Source: a virus
Taxonomy: Duplodnaviria; Heunggongvirae; Uroviricota; Caudoviricetes
Length of the DNA: 58,013 nucleotides
Reading direction: 5' to 3' (one strand)
Virus record (IMG/VR): IMGVR_UViG_3300045988_029198
Coordinates: 1-58,013 of that record
Shown here: positions 15,853-55,318 of the stretch, one piece after another
Numbering within the stretch: position 1 is the first letter of the stretch
How the letters are laid out: each line of letters opens with the position of its first letter
Made by a program: the position numbers and the translations under genes
The notes under the pieces: generated by a model
Told to the model about the DNA's origin: nothing
Databases searched by the model: none
Seen by the model: only the letters and a program-made list of their open reading frames with translations

Positions 15853-15900
15853 TTTAAAATAATTCTTGACGGATTACACAAGGACGTGTAACCTACAATC
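15853..15900 (+). promoter_or_regulatory. conserved promoter module copy (TTTAAAATAATTCTTGACG) with extended leader shared with the copy at 33201
   Basis: -35 TTGACG about 15866-15871 with AT-rich UP-like element; ~70 bp nearly identical to 33201-33272 including GGAGG RBS. Confidence 0.55.
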
Positions 15901-16105: not shown

Positions 16106-17017
16106 ATGAGTAGGAAACGTTTAACCACAGAAGAGTTTATCACGCGTGCCCGTGAAGTTCATGGACACAAATACGATTACTCGCTAGTGGAGTATGTGAA
16201 TTGGCGCACACCTGTGAAAATCATCTGTCCTATACATGGAGTGTTTGAACAAATTCCTAATAATCATTTAAAAGGACGCAAGTGTTTATTCTGTGCAGGA
16301 AATCAACAATCAAATACCAATGAATTTACCACAAGGGGGCGCGAAGTTCATGGGGGTAAGTATGGTTATTCGTTGGTGAAATATAAAGACTCTCGGGCCA
16401 AAGTGAAAATCATTTGTCCGATACACGGAATGTTTGAACAACGTCCATATAGTCACTTGCAGCAAAAAGCAGGTTGCCCACAATGTGCTTGGGAACAACT
16501 GTCTGAACAAAGACGTTTATCCGCCGAAGAATTTATTACCCGTGCTCGCGAAGTTCACGGGGACCGTTACGATTATTCGTTGGTGATGTATGTTAACAAT
16601 TCCACCTCTGTAAAAATCATCTGTCCTGAGCATGGGATGTTTGAACAGGCTCCGAACAATCACACTTCAATGAAAACCGGTTGTCCTCGGTGTTCACAAA
16701 CAGGTTTTAACCCGTCAGAACCCGGTACACTCTACGTGTTAGCTGACGATAAAAAGTGCCCTACTCTGCTTAAAGTCGGTATCACAAACGACTTAAAACG
16801 GCGACTACGACAACTACAACGCGAAACAACACACCCAGTGGTTAAACTCGTGTCGTACCCGTTTCCACACGGCGCTGATGCTTACAAACTGGAACAAGAG
16901 GTACACAAGGTCTTCCGTGAACTTAATGCGCGTCTCAAAGGCTTTGACGGTGCTACAGAGTGGTTTAAATACTCTCCTGCAATCCTCGACTACATAAATG
17001 AAAAAGCCCGGAACTAA
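16106..17017 (+). CDS. T5orf172-domain (GIY-YIG superfamily) putative homing endonuclease with three N-terminal Cys/His repeats
   Basis: 303 aa; three ~45-aa repeats EFITRAREVHGxKYDYSLV...VKIICPIHGxFEQ...C; C-terminal LYVL...KVGITNDLKRRLRQLQ T5orf172-like core. Confidence 0.7.
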   Translation: MSRKRLTTEEFITRAREVHGHKYDYSLVEYVNWRTPVKIICPIHGVFEQIPNNHLKGRKCLFCAGNQQSNTNEFTTRGREVHGGKYGYSLVKYKDSRAKVKIICPIHGMFEQRPYSHLQQKAGCPQCAWEQLSEQRRLSAEEFITRAREVHGDRYDYSLVMYVNNSTSVKIICPEHGMFEQAPNNHTSMKTGCPRCSQTGFNPSEPGTLYVLADDKKCPTLLKVGITNDLKRRLRQLQRETTHPVVKLVSYPFPHGADAYKLEQEVHKVFRELNARLKGFDGATEWFKYSPAILDYINEKARN

Positions 17018-37064: not shown

Positions 37065-38828
37065 TTAAAAAATGTCACCGTATTCAGGAGTACCAACAGG
37101 GTTCACACCACCAGTAAATGGTTCTTCAACGAATTCAGTGCGTTTTGGTGATAGTGCAATAACCGCAGCATCGAAAAAGTTTGGTGACTTACTTCTGTTT
37201 GGTTTCTTGTCGATCACAATCTTCCCGGCACCGTTACTGGTATACGTTGGCTGACTTAACTCAGCTTCTAACCGTTGTGCATTTTCCAGTGATGGATCAA
37301 TCAGAATGATTTCGTCCGGATCCTGTGGTTGACCTTCCACATACCATTTATAAATTCGCTGACAACGCAGGCGTAACGCCCACGATGCCTGTGCTTTATA
37401 ATTTGAGAAATAATCTTTGTTTGATTTACGGTCTTTGTCACCAGGTTTCGTGCCACCGATAATATCACCACCCGGATCCACAACTTTTCCATTCGGTAAC
37501 CACGGGCGCACACGGAAGCGTAAAGTATCTTTCCGGTCGTTTGCCGCTACTTTAACGCCTGTACCAACACCGTTAACTTCGTACCAGTATTCATCAACAC
37601 CCAGCATATTAGCCATCGTCAACATTCCCGGTGCAGCCAGTTCAGCACCCCTGTGGTCAAGTTGCAGATGTGTCAGGAATACACCGTGAGCAATTACCAG
37701 TGCACTTGCGTCTTCACCACCGTCTGCGGCATCCTGTCCGGCGATACGTTGACCTGTTGGTGTAAGTAGTCCATTAACTTTGCGCCATTCTGTGTCACGG
37801 AAAGCGTCAAAAGCAGCACGTACCCATTCAGCTTTAATCAGTACACCCTGAACAGCAGCGGCATAATCGCGATCGACTTCCTGTGCGAAAATATGCTGCA
37901 AACCTTTTTCAGCGAACGATTGTTTTTCTCGTTTATACCATTCGTCGTCTTTAGCCGGGTGATCACGCCAGTCCAGAACCATGACACGCAATTTACCACG
38001 GGGTAATTTCTTACCTGGTTCCCATTCCAGACCAGCTTTACGATTACGATAAAAAACGTTACCAACACCGTTAACTGAACTGATGTCGATACGAACGTTG
38101 GTGTTAGCTGACAACGACGCTTCGATCAGTTCAGGACGATCTACGTGTGCTGCCTCGTCGAGAAAATAGACAGATTTACGACCACCACGACCGATGTTAT
38201 CGCCAGCTTCACCAGTAATTGTTGCACCGTTTTCTGGGTTGATACATTTCATGTAAACCAGATGGTCTTTTTCACGCAGACCGATCGGGCGTAATTCCGG
38301 TGGTAATGCGCGGATAATCTGGCGAATCTTTTCAAAAATACTATCCGGGTCGCCCAGTTTATCAACAAGCTGTTCTTTACGTGATCCCCAGCCAACTGAA
38401 GAACCAGGACGATACAGCCACGCCCATACGGACAAACCACAGGCTACCCAGGTCGCGCCATAGTCTCGCGATTTTTCCCAAAGTCCTTTCTCTTTGTCTT
38501 CAAGCGCTTCGTAAACAAACTGAACCATGTCAATTTGACGTTCGAAAAGGCAGAAAGGCATGTTGGGTGGATATTCAGTACCAACGTTACGCGGGTCATA
38601 AGTAAACGCCCAGTCGAGAATGAATGCTACCGGGTTTGTTTCGTAATACTTTTTCAGCACCGGGACAATTGCCCGATCCGTGCGCATACGGTTTAACAGG
38701 TTAATGCGGTCAATGTAACACTGTTTATAATCCGGTCGTGGCTGACCTTTTCGCCAGATACGTTCGTCATTTGCGTAGGCATCCCGCCAACGCGGGTAAT
38801 TATGAATATTTCCAGTAAACTTATTCAT
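37065..38828 (-). CDS. terminase large subunit
   Basis: 587 aa; deviant Walker A region KSRDYGATW, size and position upstream of portal. Confidence 0.75.
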   Translation of the reverse strand: MNKFTGNIHNYPRWRDAYANDERIWRKGQPRPDYKQCYIDRINLLNRMRTDRAIVPVLKKYYETNPVAFILDWAFTYDPRNVGTEYPPNMPFCLFERQIDMVQFVYEALEDKEKGLWEKSRDYGATWVACGLSVWAWLYRPGSSVGWGSRKEQLVDKLGDPDSIFEKIRQIIRALPPELRPIGLREKDHLVYMKCINPENGATITGEAGDNIGRGGRKSVYFLDEAAHVDRPELIEASLSANTNVRIDISSVNGVGNVFYRNRKAGLEWEPGKKLPRGKLRVMVLDWRDHPAKDDEWYKREKQSFAEKGLQHIFAQEVDRDYAAAVQGVLIKAEWVRAAFDAFRDTEWRKVNGLLTPTGQRIAGQDAADGGEDASALVIAHGVFLTHLQLDHRGAELAAPGMLTMANMLGVDEYWYEVNGVGTGVKVAANDRKDTLRFRVRPWLPNGKVVDPGGDIIGGTKPGDKDRKSNKDYFSNYKAQASWALRLRCQRIYKWYVEGQPQDPDEIILIDPSLENAQRLEAELSQPTYTSNGAGKIVIDKKPNRSKSPNFFDAAVIALSPKRTEFVEEPFTGGVNPVGTPEYGDIF

Positions 38829-38891: not shown

Positions 38892-38933
38892 TTTAAAATA
38901 ATTCTTGACGGATTACATAAGTGGTGTCAGAAT
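38892..38933 (+). promoter_or_regulatory. conserved promoter module copy
   Basis: ATTTAAAATAATTCTTGACG, 17-bp spacer, CAGAAT -10. Confidence 0.6.
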
Positions 38934-38965
38934 CTGATTATCAATTGAACAGGAGTAACACAGGT

Positions 38966-39298
38966 ATGAAAATTAAAGACCACAACGGATTATTTAAAGA
39001 AGTTCTTACCGTTCGTCTTGAACGTAATGCACAACCTGAATACGGGCAAAATGCCGTTTACTGTGTTCATTTTAAAGACACTACATTTTCATATTTTGAA
39101 GATGATGTAGACACTGTTGAAATTGGTGGCGATCTTTCAATATTCGTAAAACTTTATAATACTGAACTTATGACTTACATGCTTCAAACGGTCCTGAATA
39201 CGTTCGGTCGCACTGATGGGGTGTATGTCACTACTCAGACAAAACAACGTGTAATTGAAAACATTCGTGAACTACTGGAGCGCGTCGAACATGGGTGA
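38966..39298 (+). CDS. hypothetical protein
   Basis: ATG at codon 16 of track ORF. Confidence 0.45.
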   Translation: MKIKDHNGLFKEVLTVRLERNAQPEYGQNAVYCVHFKDTTFSYFEDDVDTVEIGGDLSIFVKLYNTELMTYMLQTVLNTFGRTDGVYVTTQTKQRVIENIRELLERVEHG

Positions 39299-39473
39299 TA
39301 AACCAACTCTGACACCGTGGCGGATCCGTCTGGAAGCTGATGACGTTGCGACGATTTACGCTTATCAGGATAAACCACGAAATTTAGCACTGGGGCAATA
39401 CGCGCAATTATTCATGTTATCGTCCTGGCAGATTGTGCAACAAGCATTGGGGAAGATTAAAAGAGGTTGTTAG
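39291..39473 (+). CDS. hypothetical protein
   Basis: ATG at codon 13 of track ORF, overlapping upstream stop. Confidence 0.4.
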   Translation: MGDKPTLTPWRIRLEADDVATIYAYQDKPRNLALGQYAQLFMLSSWQIVQQALGKIKRGC

Positions 39474-39476
39474 GTT

Positions 39477-39686
39477 ATGTTTGATTACAGAAGTATGACC
39501 ATATTTGAATGTTTAAATCTATTGGTAACAACCGACCGTCCTGTACTTTGCGACGCAGATTGGCAATGTGCGTATCTTGGTGAGCTTGAGGAAGAGGATT
39601 TTCAAAGAAAACAATACAGTTTGTTTTGCACCAGGTCACAAGGTTATCGCTATTCAGGCGGTAGTTTTAAGGTTTATAAATTATGA
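39477..39686 (+). CDS. hypothetical protein
   Basis: track ORF 69 aa, AGAGG RBS. Confidence 0.4.
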   Translation: MFDYRSMTIFECLNLLVTTDRPVLCDADWQCAYLGELEEEDFQRKQYSLFCTRSQGYRYSGGSFKVYKL

Positions 39687-39738
39687 TCAGTAATCTTTTA
39701 TTCTACATGCTAATTTTTATTATTGGTGTATTAGCGAA

Positions 39739-39930
39739 ATGACGACTTGGAACATTTGTCATAAATCCGGGCGCGTACTGTTCACCACAAATGATGAACA
39801 GACCGCTATGAATCGTGCTAAATATGGGTGGAGGGTTGAAAAAGTGGATGACCGTTACGAAATTGCAAAACAGCACGGAATGTCGATAGAGTTCATCGAC
39901 TGTTCTGGGAGAACAAGAAAGCCAGTTTAG
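39739..39930 (+). CDS. hypothetical protein
   Basis: track ORF 63 aa. Confidence 0.4.
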   Translation: MTTWNICHKSGRVLFTTNDEQTAMNRAKYGWRVEKVDDRYEIAKQHGMSIEFIDCSGRTRKPV

Positions 39931-39950
39931 GTAGTGCCTGGTTTATCACC

Positions 39951-40127
39951 ATGAGCGCAATGTGGGAAGGGTGGAAAGTCAGTCGGGAACAGTTGGTAAT
40001 TGAATTACCAAAGCATGCTGGCATTTGTATTAAATCACCCGCAACACCTGTAGACGGATATGAAGCTGGTGTGCGCGATGTTGCTAACGTTCTGACCAAT
40101 GCCGGATTAACTGTTAAATTATCGTAA
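39951..40127 (+). CDS. small hypothetical ORF (58 aa)
   Basis: open frame between flanking genes on coding strand; weak RBS. Confidence 0.3.
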   Translation: MSAMWEGWKVSREQLVIELPKHAGICIKSPATPVDGYEAGVRDVANVLTNAGLTVKLS

Positions 40128-40188
40128 ATCCTATACCATCTTCGCCAGTTCCACACTACCCTGAAACTATCAAACAGGAGTGTGGAAC

Positions 40189-40395
40189 ATGTTCAGATAC
40201 GTTTTAAAATTACTCGCCATTATTGCAACATGGCTGATCATACAGTCCGGGTATGACCTGCGTGTTCGTAACCAATGCTCAGACTATCAACGAATTACAC
40301 GAACTGCGACAATCTACAGTCACGGTATTTGCTATGCTGCAGACAGTGACGGACAATTTAAAATAATTCTTGACGGTTTACACATCATCAGATAG
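40189..40395 (+). CDS. small secreted/membrane-anchored protein
   Basis: ATG at codon 4 of track ORF with AGGAG upstream; hydrophobic N-terminus; 3' end overlaps promoter copy. Confidence 0.45.
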   Translation: MFRYVLKLLAIIATWLIIQSGYDLRVRNQCSDYQRITRTATIYSHGICYAADSDGQFKIILDGLHIIR

Positions 40396-40398
40396 ACT
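40356..40398 (+). promoter_or_regulatory. conserved promoter module copy (overlaps 3' end of upstream gene)
   Basis: AATTTAAAATAATTCTTGACG, TAGACT -10 candidate. Confidence 0.55.
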
Positions 40399-40431
40399 TC
40401 AGTTTGTGTAAAACAACTGGAGTCTATCACC

Positions 40432-40698
40432 ATGTTTAAAACTGGTCAACACGTGGAAATCACCAGCCCACGACTGTTAGAAATTCTCGCACGTCGCAAA
40501 TCTAAACCATTCGGCACTGTTGTAGCGGTCGATCCGCAAGCTGAATACCCGGTTAAAGTTCGCATCACTGACGATACAGGGTTTCAAATCCCCTTCACGT
40601 TCAACGGTGAACAGTGCGATTACACGTTCTCATTTACTATGAACGGTCATCATGACCATCGTAGCCTTTCACCTGATTTAAAAGTGGTGAACGTATGA
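40432..40698 (+). CDS. hypothetical protein
   Basis: track ORF 88 aa. Confidence 0.45.
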   Translation: MFKTGQHVEITSPRLLEILARRKSKPFGTVVAVDPQAEYPVKVRITDDTGFQIPFTFNGEQCDYTFSFTMNGHHDHRSLSPDLKVVNV

Positions 40699-40850
40699 TT
40701 TTAGATTACGCGATTAAAGTGTTAGGTTCCACTAACACTTTGTGGAGTATTCCACCACAACGACTTATTACTGACCGTAAACAACCACATCGTAAAACAG
40801 GTATTGCAAAAGCCCGACGCGATGCGAAGAAAAGAAGGAACCGGAAATGA
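40695..40850 (+). CDS. small basic protein (51 aa)
   Basis: ORF below track cutoff, ATGA overlap with upstream stop. Confidence 0.35.
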   Translation: MILDYAIKVLGSTNTLWSIPPQRLITDRKQPHRKTGIAKARRDAKKRRNRK

Positions 40851-40893
40851 AACGGTTGATTATCTCATTCACGAATAAAACAGGAAAACAACT

Positions 40894-41808
40894 ATGAACT
40901 TCTTTAAAAACGCAATTATTTATCGTCTGACTAACCCGATGGTATTAATGGCCCAGTTACCAACACTGGAAGACAGCCTGTGTGCGTTTCAATTCAATCC
41001 GTGCGGTTCACAGGATATGGCGCGTACTGGATGGATTCCGGCAACTGAACAACATCATACACTGGTTCACCAGGCTAATGGGCAATATCTGCTGACACTA
41101 CAGAAACAGGAAAAGATTATTCCTGTTCCGGTCATCAAACAGCATCTGAACGCGCGAATCGCCAAACTGGAAGCTGAACAGGCGCGTAAGCTGAAGAAAA
41201 CAGAGAAAGATAGCCTGAAAGATGAAGTGTTGCACAGTCTGTTACCACGGGCATTCGTTAAAAACAGTCGTACACAGTTGTGGATTGATATTACTAACGG
41301 GTTGATCGTGGTTGATGCGTCCAGTGCTAAACGGGCTGAAGATGCGTTAGCGCTGTTGCGTAAATCCCTGGGTAGTCTGCCTGTAGTCCCACTGACAACT
41401 GAAAACCCTGTTGAACTGACAACAACGGAGTGGGTACGTTCAGGAAACGCGCCAGCAGGTTTCATAATGGGTGATTCTGCTGAACTGAAAGCAATCCTGA
41501 CTGATGGCGGTGTTGCACGCGTTAAAAAACAGGATTTAACCAGTGACGAAATAGCCACGCATATTGAAACCGGGAAAGTCGTTACAAAACTGGCTCTGGA
41601 TTGGCAGCAGCGGGTAACGTTTACGCTAACTGACAGCATGACGTTAAGCCGTCTGAAGTTCTGCGACGAGTTGCTCGACCAGAACGACGATATTGACCTT
41701 GAAGACAGTCTGGCACGATTTGACGCTGATTTTGTACTAATGACAGGTGAACTTCAGGCGCTGATCAAACAACTTATCACTGCTTTGGGTGGGGAGGCGA
41801 AACGATGA
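40894..41808 (+). CDS. rdgC: recombination-associated protein RdgC
   Basis: 304 aa; RdgC hallmark FKNxIIYRL ... [16 protein letters not shown] and full-length colinearity with bacterial RdgC. Confidence 0.8.
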
Positions 41809-42140
41809 AAACAGAACAGGAACGTATTATTCAGTGGTTATGCTCTGGTGAAACCGGACTAAGTTCTAAAACGATGGTCTGCATTCACACAGGTAATGAA
41901 ATGGGTGGCGACTGGGGATTTCGTGCACCACGGGATGTTGCTGATTTCCGTCGTTGTTGGTTCCTGGTTGAAGCTGTACCAGAAATCAGAAACAGTTTTC
42001 CATTGATTGCTGAAAAATGTCCGGCGTTTAAAGGAGTGATTGAAAACTGGGACGCTATCAGTGCAGCTTATGAACGTGAACGCGGATCCGGTAAATGTCC
42101 TGAAACGTATCGGTTGTTGAAAGAAGCGTTGGGCGAATAA
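41805..42140 (+). CDS. hypothetical protein
   Basis: 111 aa, ATGA overlap with rdgC stop. Confidence 0.45.
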
Positions 42141-42148
42141 TGAACATT

Positions 42149-42176
42149 AACCCCGGTTAACCCGGGGTTTTTATTT
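42149..42176 (+). terminator. rho-independent terminator
   Basis: ccccgg-ttaac-ccgggg then TTTTTATTT. Confidence 0.65.
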
Positions 42177-42178
42177 AA

Positions 42179-42216
42179 AATAATTCTTGACGAATTACAG
42201 TAAAACAACCTATAAT
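42179..42216 (+). promoter_or_regulatory. conserved promoter module copy, near-consensus sigma70
   Basis: AAAATAATTCTTGACG, 18-bp spacer, TATAAT at 42211-42216. Confidence 0.7.
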
Positions 42217-42250
42217 GACCTCATTGAAACGAACTGTGAGGAACTGAAAA

Positions 42251-42439
42251 ATGGAACTGAAAGTAATCAAACGCGCTAAAGACCTGACACCCGGTGCTTT
42301 TAAAATCGGAACCGTTGTTGATCTGGATACTGACGACATGGTTGTTTATCACAAGGGTCTGGAATGGAATGTTCGTAAAACTGACGATGGTTACTACACG
42401 ATGGGTAACAGTGAAACAGTTTTTGAAGTTGTTGTGTAA
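42251..42439 (+). CDS. hypothetical protein
   Basis: track ORF 62 aa, GAGGA RBS. Confidence 0.45.
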   Translation: MELKVIKRAKDLTPGAFKIGTVVDLDTDDMVVYHKGLEWNVRKTDDGYYTMGNSETVFEVVV

Positions 42440-42555: not shown

Positions 42556-43191
42556 TTATTTGAGTGCCTTCTGATACAGTTGCGCGATATCGTCGATGGT
42601 TGCACCTTCAGGAACACTCTGAACCACGTTTCCAACCACACCTGACAATTCCACACGGTCGATACTGTTCCCGGTGATCTTATCCAGTTGTTCAGACGCT
42701 TTTGCACGAGTTTTCGGGTCGAACAGTTCACGTGTCACCAGGATGTATCCGCCCAGCATGTAACGTTTGTAGCAAACTACGTACTGTTGCAGATGGCTGG
42801 GGATATCGTCGGTACTGTTCACCCACAGGTGTTTCGCTTCCGTGTCGTCTTCACCAGGAACAATGACACGCTGACAATACGGTTCCAGTAATTCTTCAGC
42901 CGTGCTTGCCGCTCGTTTCCACCACTCGACACGACTCGTTAACGATTCCCCGACAGACTCAAGCGCATGACTTCCCATCGCGTCCAGATAGTTCAACACC
43001 TTCGTATTCGACAGGAGGCGATGTGCGGTAACTTTAGCTGCGTCAGGGTCTTTATGTCCCGGATAAGCGTGTAAGACGCACTGAGCGTTGCTGAAGCCGT
43101 TATTGACACGATCTAACCACAGGTTAGCAAAACGGAGTTGATCGGTTGTTAACTCCAGAGCAGCCCTTTTAGCCCGGTCTGAAATTTTCAT
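42556..43191 (-). CDS. terminase small subunit (Terminase_2-like)
   Basis: ATG at codon 40 of track ORF with GGGAG RBS; LTTDQLRFANLWL...FSNAQCVLHAYPG...RLLSNTKVLNYL resembles TerS HTH region. Confidence 0.6.
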   Translation of the reverse strand: MKISDRAKRAALELTTDQLRFANLWLDRVNNGFSNAQCVLHAYPGHKDPDAAKVTAHRLLSNTKVLNYLDAMGSHALESVGESLTSRVEWWKRAASTAEELLEPYCQRVIVPGEDDTEAKHLWVNSTDDIPSHLQQYVVCYKRYMLGGYILVTRELFDPKTRAKASEQLDKITGNSIDRVELSGVVGNVVQSVPEGATIDDIAQLYQKALK

Positions 43192-43254
43192 AAATTTGTC
43201 TCCCATAAATTTTAAATTAGTTTCCCACAGATACCCACGGGTTGTCCACACGCC

Positions 43255-43700
43255 CTGTTTTACAGCTAATACAATGTTAGTATTAAGTTTACAGTTAGTG
43301 CACAACATGCACTAATTTTCGACCACATACATAAATAAGTAACCCATAATCACAATCATTTCAAAGACTTGCATAAAAACATAGATTACAATAGGTATCT
43401 CCCAGACTTTTATTTTAGCTCTATTTACAGCTAATACACTATATGCACTATCTCTATCTTTCTATACTACTTCTTCTTTATATCTATGTTTTCTATGTTA
43501 TCTATAAAAAGATAATAAAAAGAATAAGATAGAGAGAGGTTGGTTAAAAAGTAAACATGACGAAATCTATGTTAAGTATAACTTTAATGCACAACATGCA
43601 TTATATAATTCACAACGTGCATTAGCTGTACCAACATAGATACACAACGTGCACTAACAGCTAATACACAACGTGCATCTTGCACTAGCTGCTAACGCGC
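43255..43700. promoter_or_regulatory. AT-rich iteron cluster between divergent terS and a DNA-binding-protein gene (candidate operator / pac / ori)
   Basis: at least 5 copies of CACAAC(A/G)TGCA and 3 copies of AGCTAATACA; contains copy 2 of the 95-bp repeat. Confidence 0.55.
43476..43576. repeat. ~95-bp AT-rich dispersed repeat, copy 2
   Basis: see copy 1 at 26485..26587. Confidence 0.8.
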
Positions 43701-43739
43701 GTTATGATTTATCCGTGGTCAAACAAGAAGGGTATGATA

Positions 43740-44516
43740 ATGAAAAAGAACCTTTTAGACGAATTGATAGATTTAAAAGGCGGGGTACAAAATGCTGTTG
43801 AATACCTTAATCGTCGAGGTGTTAAGGTGACTGTTGGTCGTTACAACCAATGGTTGAGCGGTAGGTTTCATCCTAAATATGAAACGATCAGTATTATTCT
43901 TGAAGAGATTACTGACTTCACACTGTCACCCTTGCCAGTACAACATTCTGACGAAAACATTGTTCTTAAACACACAATACCGGTTACCGAACTGCGTCAG
44001 AAATTACCACACAGGCGTTTTGCTAATAACTACTGGCAACGTGTCAGATACGTTGATTCACAGATCCTGGAAGCTGTTCACGGTCACGACGTGTGGACAC
44101 GGTTTGAGGCGATGTGTGGTAATTTTGAATGCGCAAGATACGTGTTACGCAGAAATTTAAACGAACACACAATTACTGACAGTTGGATTCAGAATGGTTT
44201 GCGCCGGGGATGGGTCCCGGAATGTGTAAATGTAATGGCCGATTTGCTTGAAAAATACGAAGGCACCGGGACACCGTTTAACGTGATGGTTTGTGAAGCA
44301 CCTGTAGCACGAGTGGAACCACCTGTAGCACGAGTGGAACCACCTGTAGCACGAGTGGAACCACCTGTAGCACGAGTGGAACCACCTGTAGTCGATGTCA
44401 GCGATTTGAAGGAGAAAATCAGACTGTATGCGTTATCACACAACCCGCATTGCGATGTAGATAATATGCCTGATGATGTTGTTTTGATGATGTATAAAGA
44501 TATGATGGGTCAATAA
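43740..44516 (+). CDS. putative DNA-binding protein (N-terminal HTH-like) with (PVARVEP)4 tandem repeat
   Basis: ATG at codon 13 of track ORF with GAAGGG upstream; start ambiguous between 43704, 43734 and 43740. Confidence 0.45.
   Translation: MKKNLLDELIDLKGGVQNAVEYLNRRGVKVTVGRYNQWLSGRFHPKYETISIILEEITDFTLSPLPVQHSDENIVLKHTIPVTELRQKLPHRRFANNYWQRVRYVDSQILEAVHGHDVWTRFEAMCGNFECARYVLRRNLNEHTITDSWIQNGLRRGWVPECVNVMADLLEKYEGTGTPFNVMVCEAPVARVEPPVARVEPPVARVEPPVARVEPPVVDVSDLKEKIRLYALSHNPHCDVDNMPDDVVLMMYKDMMGQ
44299..44393. repeat. 21-bp tandem repeat, ~4.4 copies, in-frame
   Basis: cacctgtagcacgagtggaac repeated head-to-tail. Confidence 0.9.
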
Positions 44517-55274: not shown

Positions 55275-55318
55275 GTTTAAAATAGTTCTTGACGCATTGC
55301 AACTTATTCCTCTAACAT
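55275..55318 (+). promoter_or_regulatory. conserved promoter module copy (variant AAAATAGTTCTTGACG)
   Basis: -35 at 55289-55294, 18-bp spacer, TAACAT -10. Confidence 0.6.

Follow-up and report, generated by a model that had tools for sequence, protein, structure and literature searches.

An RdgC homologue in a putative accessory module of a 9NA-like siphophage, a candidate clamp against host RecA

What might a bacteriophage gain from carrying its own copy of rdgC, a gene that E. coli already has on its chromosome? The question is raised by an open reading frame (ORF) in the IMG/VR virus record IMGVR_UViG_3300045988_029198, the whole 58,013-nucleotide (nt) stretch of which was analyzed and is here called the window. 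An earlier note, made from the letters of this DNA, had proposed that the ORF encodes a full-length, phage-borne RdgC homologue in a plus-strand early cassette, which could protect replication intermediates or interfere with host recombination during infection. The analysis indicates that the gene belongs to an old, phage-resident rdgC lineage and that its product may act as a clamp on phage DNA. In the ORF list the gene extends from ATG to stop at exactly 40894..41808 and encodes 304 amino acids (aa); it is placed with its ribosome-binding signal as follows.

40894..41808, plus strand: rdgC (PF04381, NF001462, 2OWL, phrog_724), recombination-associated DNA-binding protein RdgC
40882..40885, plus strand: Shine-Dalgarno AGGA of rdgC, 8 nt upstream of the ATG, read from the sequence

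The Pfam profile PF04381 matched the product over positions 2-298 of 298 (E=2.1e-115, 385.6 bits, cut-off 25), and the product passed two NCBIfam models, the RdgC equivalog NF001462 (416.9 bits against a cut-off of 330) and NF001464 (335 against 227 bits); the best-scoring equivalog model, NF001460, nevertheless stayed below its own cut-off (472 against 501 bits). The crystallised E. coli RdgC 2OWL was matched at E=1.4e-128, with phage residues 2-304 aligned to 2OWL residues 2-303, and P. aeruginosa RdgC 2OWY at E=2.3e-65 over phage residues 3-301, while the PHROG match placed the protein in phrog_724. The product has a single domain and the size of about 300 aa expected of the family, and it is collinear with the solved RdgC structures. 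The earlier note had named alignment with the host gene as a check, low similarity being the outcome that would speak against it; the global alignment of phage RdgC with chromosomal E. coli RdgC gives 67% aa identity. Judged on these profile and structure matches, the family match is far outside chance, and the ORF almost certainly encodes a full-length RdgC homologue, as had been claimed. Many phage records label RdgC an exonuclease, a reading that we considered and rejected. What speaks for it is the historical family name alone (Pfam 'Putative exonuclease, RdgC', with the PHROG and GenBank labels), but E. coli RdgC has no identifiable nuclease activity or domain (PMC1885664) and the structures are those of a DNA-binding ring without a catalytic site, so that a nuclease function is scarcely credible. 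The name is a historical misnomer, and the label, widespread on phage rdgC genes, is unsupported and better replaced by 'recombination-associated DNA-binding protein RdgC'.

Does the phage protein retain the residues on which RdgC activity depends? The roles of the fingertip, gate and horseshoe residues of E. coli RdgC are known from Briggs 2010 (PMC2965237): the electropositive fingertip R97/K98/K100/K101 is needed to load onto circular DNA, the gate interface comprises R118 and F120, of which F120 is essential, and the horseshoe interface consists of a hydrogen-bond network of Q212, E218 and K227, together with H222. In P. aeruginosa RdgC, mutation of the pore residues R4, K70, R81, R122, K146, R198, R208 and R252 weakens binding to double-stranded DNA (dsDNA) (Ha 2007, PMC1885664). 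In the alignment, 18 of the 18 residues mapped by mutagenesis to ring closure, loading or DNA binding are conserved in phage RdgC. The four fingertip residues are identical and lie in the same RKLKK motif as in E. coli, the gate residues are identical at R119 and F121, and the horseshoe residues are identical in phage RdgC and in four other aligned phage orthologues. All 8 pore positions are basic (K5, K71, K82, K123, R147, K199, R209 and R253). Residues 91-120, which contain the fingertip and the gate, are 100% identical between phage and E. coli RdgC, whereas the N-terminal ~75 aa show only ~40% identity; this is likewise the most variable segment among cellular RdgCs. The overall identity to 2OWL suggests that phage RdgC adopts the toroidal dimer fold.

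Is the gene maintained by selection, and where did it come from? Pairwise ratios of non-synonymous to synonymous divergence (dN/dS) among five phage orthologues are 0.10-0.19, with dS up to ~1.4, and phage rdgC is under purifying selection. This selection acts on the plus frame, and an antisense ORF of 190 aa at 41067..41639 was accordingly dismissed as a shadow ORF. The reading frame is intact in at least 120 metagenomic and isolate sequences. At the nucleotide level only gene positions 211-860 show detectable similarity to E. coli rdgC (~71%), synonymous sites are saturated between the two genes, and no match spanning at least 80% of phage rdgC exists in any of the 5,426 complete E. coli genomes searched; on these three grounds a recent capture from the host was rejected. 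The 120 best protein matches (79-94% identity) are all on contigs of at most ~61 kilobases (kb) or in named 9NA-like phages. This origin of the best matches, together with the saturated dS and the missing E. coli match, argues for an old, phage-resident rdgC lineage, and these data indicate its long-term maintenance in phages. A genome scan with the phage protein, limited by a search pattern, returned 11 loci at 35-64% identity in Proteus, Providencia, Xenorhabdus, Edwardsiella and others, and within it no cellular donor closer than E. coli RdgC was found. Neofunctionalisation was also considered and rejected: only six positions carry lineage-specific substitutions when 121 phage-lineage sequences are compared with cellular sequences and P1 HrdC, three of them are conservative, and the divergent N-terminus is variable in cellular sequences too. 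The gene could instead be a neutral hitch-hiker, captured from a host and without phage function, which would agree with the absence of the unit from 9NA and Sasha (see below) and with the non-essential hrdC of P1 (PMC10695390). Such low dN/dS across orthologues diverged to dS ~1.4, at least 120 intact frames, saturation against E. coli and the empty search of E. coli genomes argue to the contrary, and make neutrality highly improbable.

To what kind of phage does the gene belong? Over the aligned parts of the region and of a 25-kb structural block, the window is ~94-96% identical in nucleotides to E. coli phages AVIO78A, PJ16, BDX09P1, PDP46 and KarinMuster_Bas82 (Bas82), which confirms the phage-borne nature of the gene, and it is 82-92% identical to Salmonella phages Sergei, Solent, Sasha and 9NA. 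Its best whole-region match reaches 89% coverage at 95.6% identity, and the window phage is a distinct genome within the 9NA-like group. The window is a whole circular assembly, the complete genome of a 9NA-like (Nonanavirus/Sashavirus) siphophage: both ends lie inside a 30-nt tandem repeat of a gene for a Gp2.5/Enc34-like single-stranded DNA (ssDNA)-binding protein, and dropping a 19-nt overlap at the ends restores the reading frame of this gene. The relatives encode their own DNA polymerase, helicase, primase, single-stranded DNA-binding protein (SSB), DUF2800/PD-(D/E)XK exonuclease and Gp2.5-like annealing protein, and no integrase, repressor or RecA homologue is found among their annotations. 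Phages of the 9NA-like type are known to be virulent. Both terS and terL are present in the relatives, whose records are of the circularly permuted type, as would fit headful packaging from concatemers.

Three further features of the genome were observed. The 30-nt repeat, at 1..111 and 57935..58013 in a gene that starts at 57335, encodes (PAAAPVAAPT)n; its true copy number is uncertain because the assembly was cut within it, and in Sasha, too, a tandem repeat is annotated within this gene. At 44295..44391 a perfect 21-nt unit, repeated in tandem 4.6 times, encodes PPVARVE repeats; it sits in a 270-aa ORF (43704..44516, plus strand) that has no Pfam match and adjoins the terS region; 'direct tandem repeat regions' are annotated at comparable places in relatives. 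Lastly, a 303-aa ORF at 16106..17017 (plus strand), counter-oriented among the tail genes and directly downstream of a copy of the promoter element described below, has DUF723 and T5orf172/MUG113 domains, which we take to be GIY-YIG-related and homing-endonuclease-like.

When would rdgC be expressed? The gene lies in a plus-strand cassette (38921-42439) that is inserted between terL and terS and transcribed against both. The boundaries of the cassette, and of the unit that holds rdgC, are listed here.

37065..38828, minus strand: terL, left flank of the cassette
38897..38917, plus strand: promoter-like element AATAATTCTTGACGGATTACA, head of the whole cassette; TTGACG -35, 17-nt spacer, TG-extended CAGAAT
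40362..40382, plus strand: internal promoter-like element, left boundary of the rdgC unit, 70 nt upstream of an 88-aa ORF
42149..42169, no strand assigned (T-run on the plus strand): terminator-like GC hairpin and T-run, right boundary of the rdgC unit
42179..42199, plus strand: next promoter copy, TTGACG-18-TATAAT with 11/12 consensus matches, which starts the following small unit
within 42556..43308, minus strand: terS, right flank of the cassette

The rdgC unit thus reads, in order, promoter (40362), 88-aa ORF, 51-aa ORF, rdgC, 111-aa ORF and terminator (42149). The promoter-like elements belong to a repeated 21-base-pair (bp) element, AATAATTCTTGACGNATTACA, of which the genome holds 13 copies against 0 expected by chance; with its flanks it spans ~26 bp, tTTAAAATAATTCTTGACGGATTACA, and includes an A/T tract and a TTGAC -35. 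Copies lie at 15858, 26374 (minus strand), 26689, 31597, 33206, 35429, 38897, 40362, 42179, 47748 (minus strand), 50376 (minus strand), 55281 and 55344, and they precede every counter-oriented island of small genes. The copy at 38897 falls within the 92-bp divergent gap after the terL start. A copy just upstream of the 88-aa gene is also present in PJ16, Sergei, Bas82 and the Klebsiella phage VLCpiS10a. The hairpin at 42149-42169 has an 8-bp stem with 6 GC pairs, followed by TTTTATTT (-14.8 kcal/mol, z=-2.15), and a terminator is annotated at the equivalent place in Sergei. The copies at 55281 and 55344 precede the operon from 55413, which, judged by its homology to Bas82, carries the genes for the exonuclease, annealase and DNA polymerase. 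This promoter type, shared with the replication and recombination operon, argues for early or middle expression of the rdgC unit, which is probably expressed with the replication and recombination genes and before the late structural genes. The plus-strand placement in the earlier note is borne out, while its word 'early' holds by extension from the shared promoter element and from transcription against terS and terL. Conservation of the element runs well past the needs of a sigma70 -35, with -10 regions that are weak or variable, and a regulator may also bind there. Variable modules are flanked by copies of the element in direct repeat.

Is the unit a fixed part of these genomes? Among 20 distinct phages of the group, defined as phages with TerL at least 86% identical, 16 carry this rdgC lineage. 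In tblastn searches, 9NA was found to lack exactly the rdgC unit, while the genes before it are retained and the junction holds one promoter copy, and Sasha to lack the whole first operon; neither RdgC nor the three small ORFs occur elsewhere in the 9NA or Sasha genomes. The copies at 40362 and 42179 form direct repeats that flank the unit and are a plausible substrate for its recombinational gain and loss. Presence or absence of rdgC cuts across host genera, the gene being missing from Salmonella- and Klebsiella-isolated phages and from the host-unlabelled 536P12. Altogether, the unit, with its putative promoter and terminator and its variable presence among collinear relatives, looks like a common but dispensable, moron-like accessory module. 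Beyond this group, tblastn gives 494 of 50,697 phage records (~1%) with an RdgC homologue, including P1/P7 hrdC, ICP1 and many Vibrio and Pseudomonas phages. Annotations in the relatives read 'recombination-associated protein', 'RdgC exonuclease' or 'exonuclease recombination-associated', and phage RdgC homologues are mentioned in passing for lambdoid phages (PMC12315714) and for Achromobacter phage AchV4 (PMC7996906). Phage RdgC genes are already known, being annotated in the nearest relatives and in hundreds of other phages, and the novelty that the earlier note implied does not stand.

How, then, could an additional RdgC serve the phage? The RdgC dimer encircles dsDNA and inhibits RecA strand exchange, ATPase activity and LexA cleavage, mainly by sequestering the duplex, and it counters RecFOR-mediated loading of RecA; these activities, with non-specific binding to dsDNA and ssDNA, are known for E. 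coli and P. aeruginosa RdgC only (PMC11077077, PMC2965237, PMC1885664). The conserved functional residues, the promoter type of the replication genes and the phage's own exonuclease and annealase together make exclusion of RecA the best-supported reading, and we give roughly even chances to phage RdgC being a dsDNA-encircling clamp that would keep host RecA off phage DNA during replication. The phage supplies a RecA-independent recombination set, consisting of the DUF2800/PD-(D/E)XK exonuclease, the Gp2.5/Enc34-like annealing protein and the SSB. Extra RdgC made in infection would coat phage duplex and fork-proximal DNA, and the coat would deny strand-exchange access to host RecA, whether loaded by RecFOR or by RecBCD. 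The phage machinery, and not RecA, would then process replication intermediates and concatemers, and RecA activation would be damped. From the comparisons made here we infer ring formation, the timing of expression and a RecA-antagonist role in infection. The modulation of RecA and the protection of replication intermediates proposed in the earlier note are plausible by analogy with cellular RdgC, because every functionally mapped residue is conserved.

Several observations weigh against this reading. 9NA and Sasha are viable without the rdgC unit, so that any benefit it brings would be conditional, and P1 hrdC was non-essential in a CRISPR interference (CRISPRi) screen (PMC10695390). The host cell already contains ~1000 RdgC dimers in exponential phase (PMC1885664), to which the phage would add a 67%-identical copy, and in the literature searched we found no experimental characterisation of any phage RdgC. 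The AlphaFold2 (AF2) model of the monomer, built on a shallow alignment of 23 sequences all at least 79% identical, is too poor to confirm a ring (mean predicted local distance difference test score, pLDDT, 52.6; predicted template modelling score, pTM, 0.38). Expression timing is read from a promoter motif, and a generic scan for sigma70 promoters and terminators gave no enrichment over shuffled sequence (13 promoters found, 10.8 expected); the informative signal is the specific repeated motif and not the generic scan.

The effect of RdgC on LexA cleavage points to a possible different use of the same protein, in which it would suppress the RecA* co-protease activity and not recombination as such. 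It would thereby avert LexA cleavage, induction of resident prophages and RecA/SOS-dependent abortive infection or defence, in a manner analogous to plasmid PsiB, a known RecA inhibitor of mobile elements (PMC2965237). RdgC lowers RecA-dependent LexA cleavage in vitro (work cited in PMC11077077), and both the variable moron-like setting, typical of host-takeover or counter-defence cargo, and the distribution across host genera would agree with such a damper of SOS or defence; the PADLOC searches nevertheless returned 0 matches and no known anti-defence annotation was seen, and we consider it unlikely, if the more serious of the alternatives. The ring could also clamp linear or concatemer ends, or stalled forks, and protect them against RecBCD and other host nucleases and helicases, functionally like lambda Gam, though it would act on the DNA instead of the enzyme. 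RdgC shows a raised affinity for DNA ends and very tight duplex binding (atomic force microscopy, AFM, cited in PMC1885664); the relatives' terS and terL genes and permuted-type records are consistent with headful packaging from concatemers, and no recognisable Gam or other RecBCD inhibitor is among the annotated genes. Many uncharacterised small ORFs could encode such an inhibitor, however; there is no evidence that RdgC blocks RecBCD, and E. coli genetics point to RecA and RecFOR, so that end or fork protection seems distinctly unlikely.

The fold of RdgC raises one further possibility, that the phage protein works in exclusion or as a developmental switch in the manner of RexA. RexA is a structural homologue of RdgC (PMC11077077), and Casjens and colleagues raised this possibility for RdgC homologues beside cI in some lambdoid phages (PMC12315714). 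The window protein is an RdgC at the sequence level, however; it gave no match to the RexA Pfam family, the two flanking ORFs scanned gave none to RexB, and a prophage context is lacking, no integrase or repressor being annotated in the relatives. A RexA-like role is therefore very improbable. Compared with these alternatives, the clamp that keeps RecA off phage DNA remains the reading that we prefer.

Could the neighbours of rdgC disclose its function? The small ORFs around the gene are as follows.

40432..40698, plus strand: 88-aa ORF, first gene of the rdgC unit
40695..40850, plus strand: 51-aa ORF with a basic C-terminus, variable filler gene
41805..42140, plus strand: 111-aa ORF (phrog_1229), whose start overlaps the rdgC stop (ATGA)
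42251..42439, plus strand: 62-aa ORF (phrog_7421), last small unit before terS, behind the near-consensus promoter TTGACG-18-TATAAT

At E<=0.01, PADLOC gave no match for RdgC or for the 88-, 51- and 111-aa ORFs. The 88-aa protein, which has no match in Pfam, PHROG or PADLOC, occurs in exactly the 17 phage records with this rdgC lineage and in no other phage record, and all 72 of its metagenomic homologues are on contigs of at most 59 kb. Its gene is always the first after the internal promoter, and its linkage to rdgC persists across changes in the small genes that separate the two. This co-occurrence could reflect function or merely physical linkage. If it reflects function, the unit would be a two-part phage module in which the 88-aa protein acts with RdgC as a counter-defence or host-takeover device, and might steer the ring to particular DNA or load it there, or be directed at a host factor; we regard this as a long shot. 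The AF2 model of the 88-aa protein (15 sequences) has low confidence (pLDDT 58.5). Conservation of the 51-aa ORF in PJ16 and Bas82 covers its first 37 aa, and the ORF is absent from Sergei and the Klebsiella phage.

The 111-aa protein was considered as a conserved partner of RdgC and rejected, phrog_1229 not being consistently adjacent to RdgC. PJ16, Sergei, Bas82, AVIO78A and Kpn BU9 carry the gene downstream of rdgC and VLCpiS10a does not; the family, found in 261 phage records, is widespread and extends to lambdoid, Stx and Vibrio phages and to PY54. Vibrio phage D288 has no RdgC-sized gene within 3.5 kb of its phrog_1229 homologue, and in other Vibrio D-series phages of the same size a distant RdgC homologue lies ~16 kb from the phrog_1229 gene. 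The PY54 'recombination associated protein' near the phrog_1229 member is a weak partial match to RdgC (29% over 135 aa); in PY54 this member shares its operon with an exonuclease gene and a Dam methylase gene. The 62-aa ORF has no homologue at the equivalent position in PJ16, Sergei, Bas82, 9NA or the Klebsiella phage, and this slot is thus also mosaic.

What does this locus add? The window gene is one more member of a well-populated and already annotated set of phage RdgC genes, and the wider question of what RdgC does in phages, virulent and temperate alike, is real and not new. Three descriptive points are mildly new: the accessory unit is bounded by promoter elements, the orphan 88-aa protein co-occurs strictly with this rdgC lineage, and relatives with and without rdgC exist in nature. 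These relatives, together with a cultivable pair of an E. coli K-12-derived host and a phage (KarinMuster, Bas82), make the 9NA-like group convenient for studying phage RdgC function.

How does the gene compare with known systems? PsiB, a functional analogue only, is a RecA antagonist of mobile elements that is expressed on entry into a new host (PMC2965237); it is unrelated to RdgC and binds free RecA, not DNA. Lambda RexA shares the folds of the RdgC centre and base domains and binds DNA non-specifically (PMC11077077), but it has no detectable sequence similarity to RdgC and lacks the tip, or finger, domain. RexA partners RexB in a prophage, where it functions in exclusion and in the lysis-lysogeny switch, and no RexB-like neighbour of the window RdgC was found. 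HrdC of P1 and P7 is, like the window protein, a full-length RdgC carried by a phage, with conserved dimer-interface and fingertip residues, and the product of hrdC is entered in the P1 record as hypothetical, recombination-associated and belonging to the RdgC family. P1 hrdC belongs to the C1-repressed uhr-hrdC-dmt operon of a temperate plasmid-prophage, and three of the eight pore positions of HrdC are not basic, whereas all are in the window protein. With 58% identity in the global alignment, P1 HrdC is farther from the window RdgC than E. coli RdgC is, which argues that phage RdgCs arose more than once; judged by this distance, P1 HrdC appears to be an acquisition independent of the window lineage. 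E. coli chromosomal RdgC (303 aa, against 304 in the window) is collinear over its full length, and its gene adjoins mak on the chromosome, whereas the window rdgC sits in an accessory transcription unit of a lytic-type phage. Closest are the RdgCs of other 9NA-like phages, namely PJ16_006, those of AVIO78A, Solent, FSL SP-062 (labelled 'RdgC exonuclease'), Klebsiella VLCpiS10a, KP13-27 and Kpn BU9, Bas82_0099 and Sergei gp07, which are 77-94% identical in aa to the window RdgC. As in the window, their genes lie between terL and terS on the same strand and have the same promoter element and 88-aa gene in front of them, whereas the number of small filler ORFs beside rdgC differs from phage to phage.

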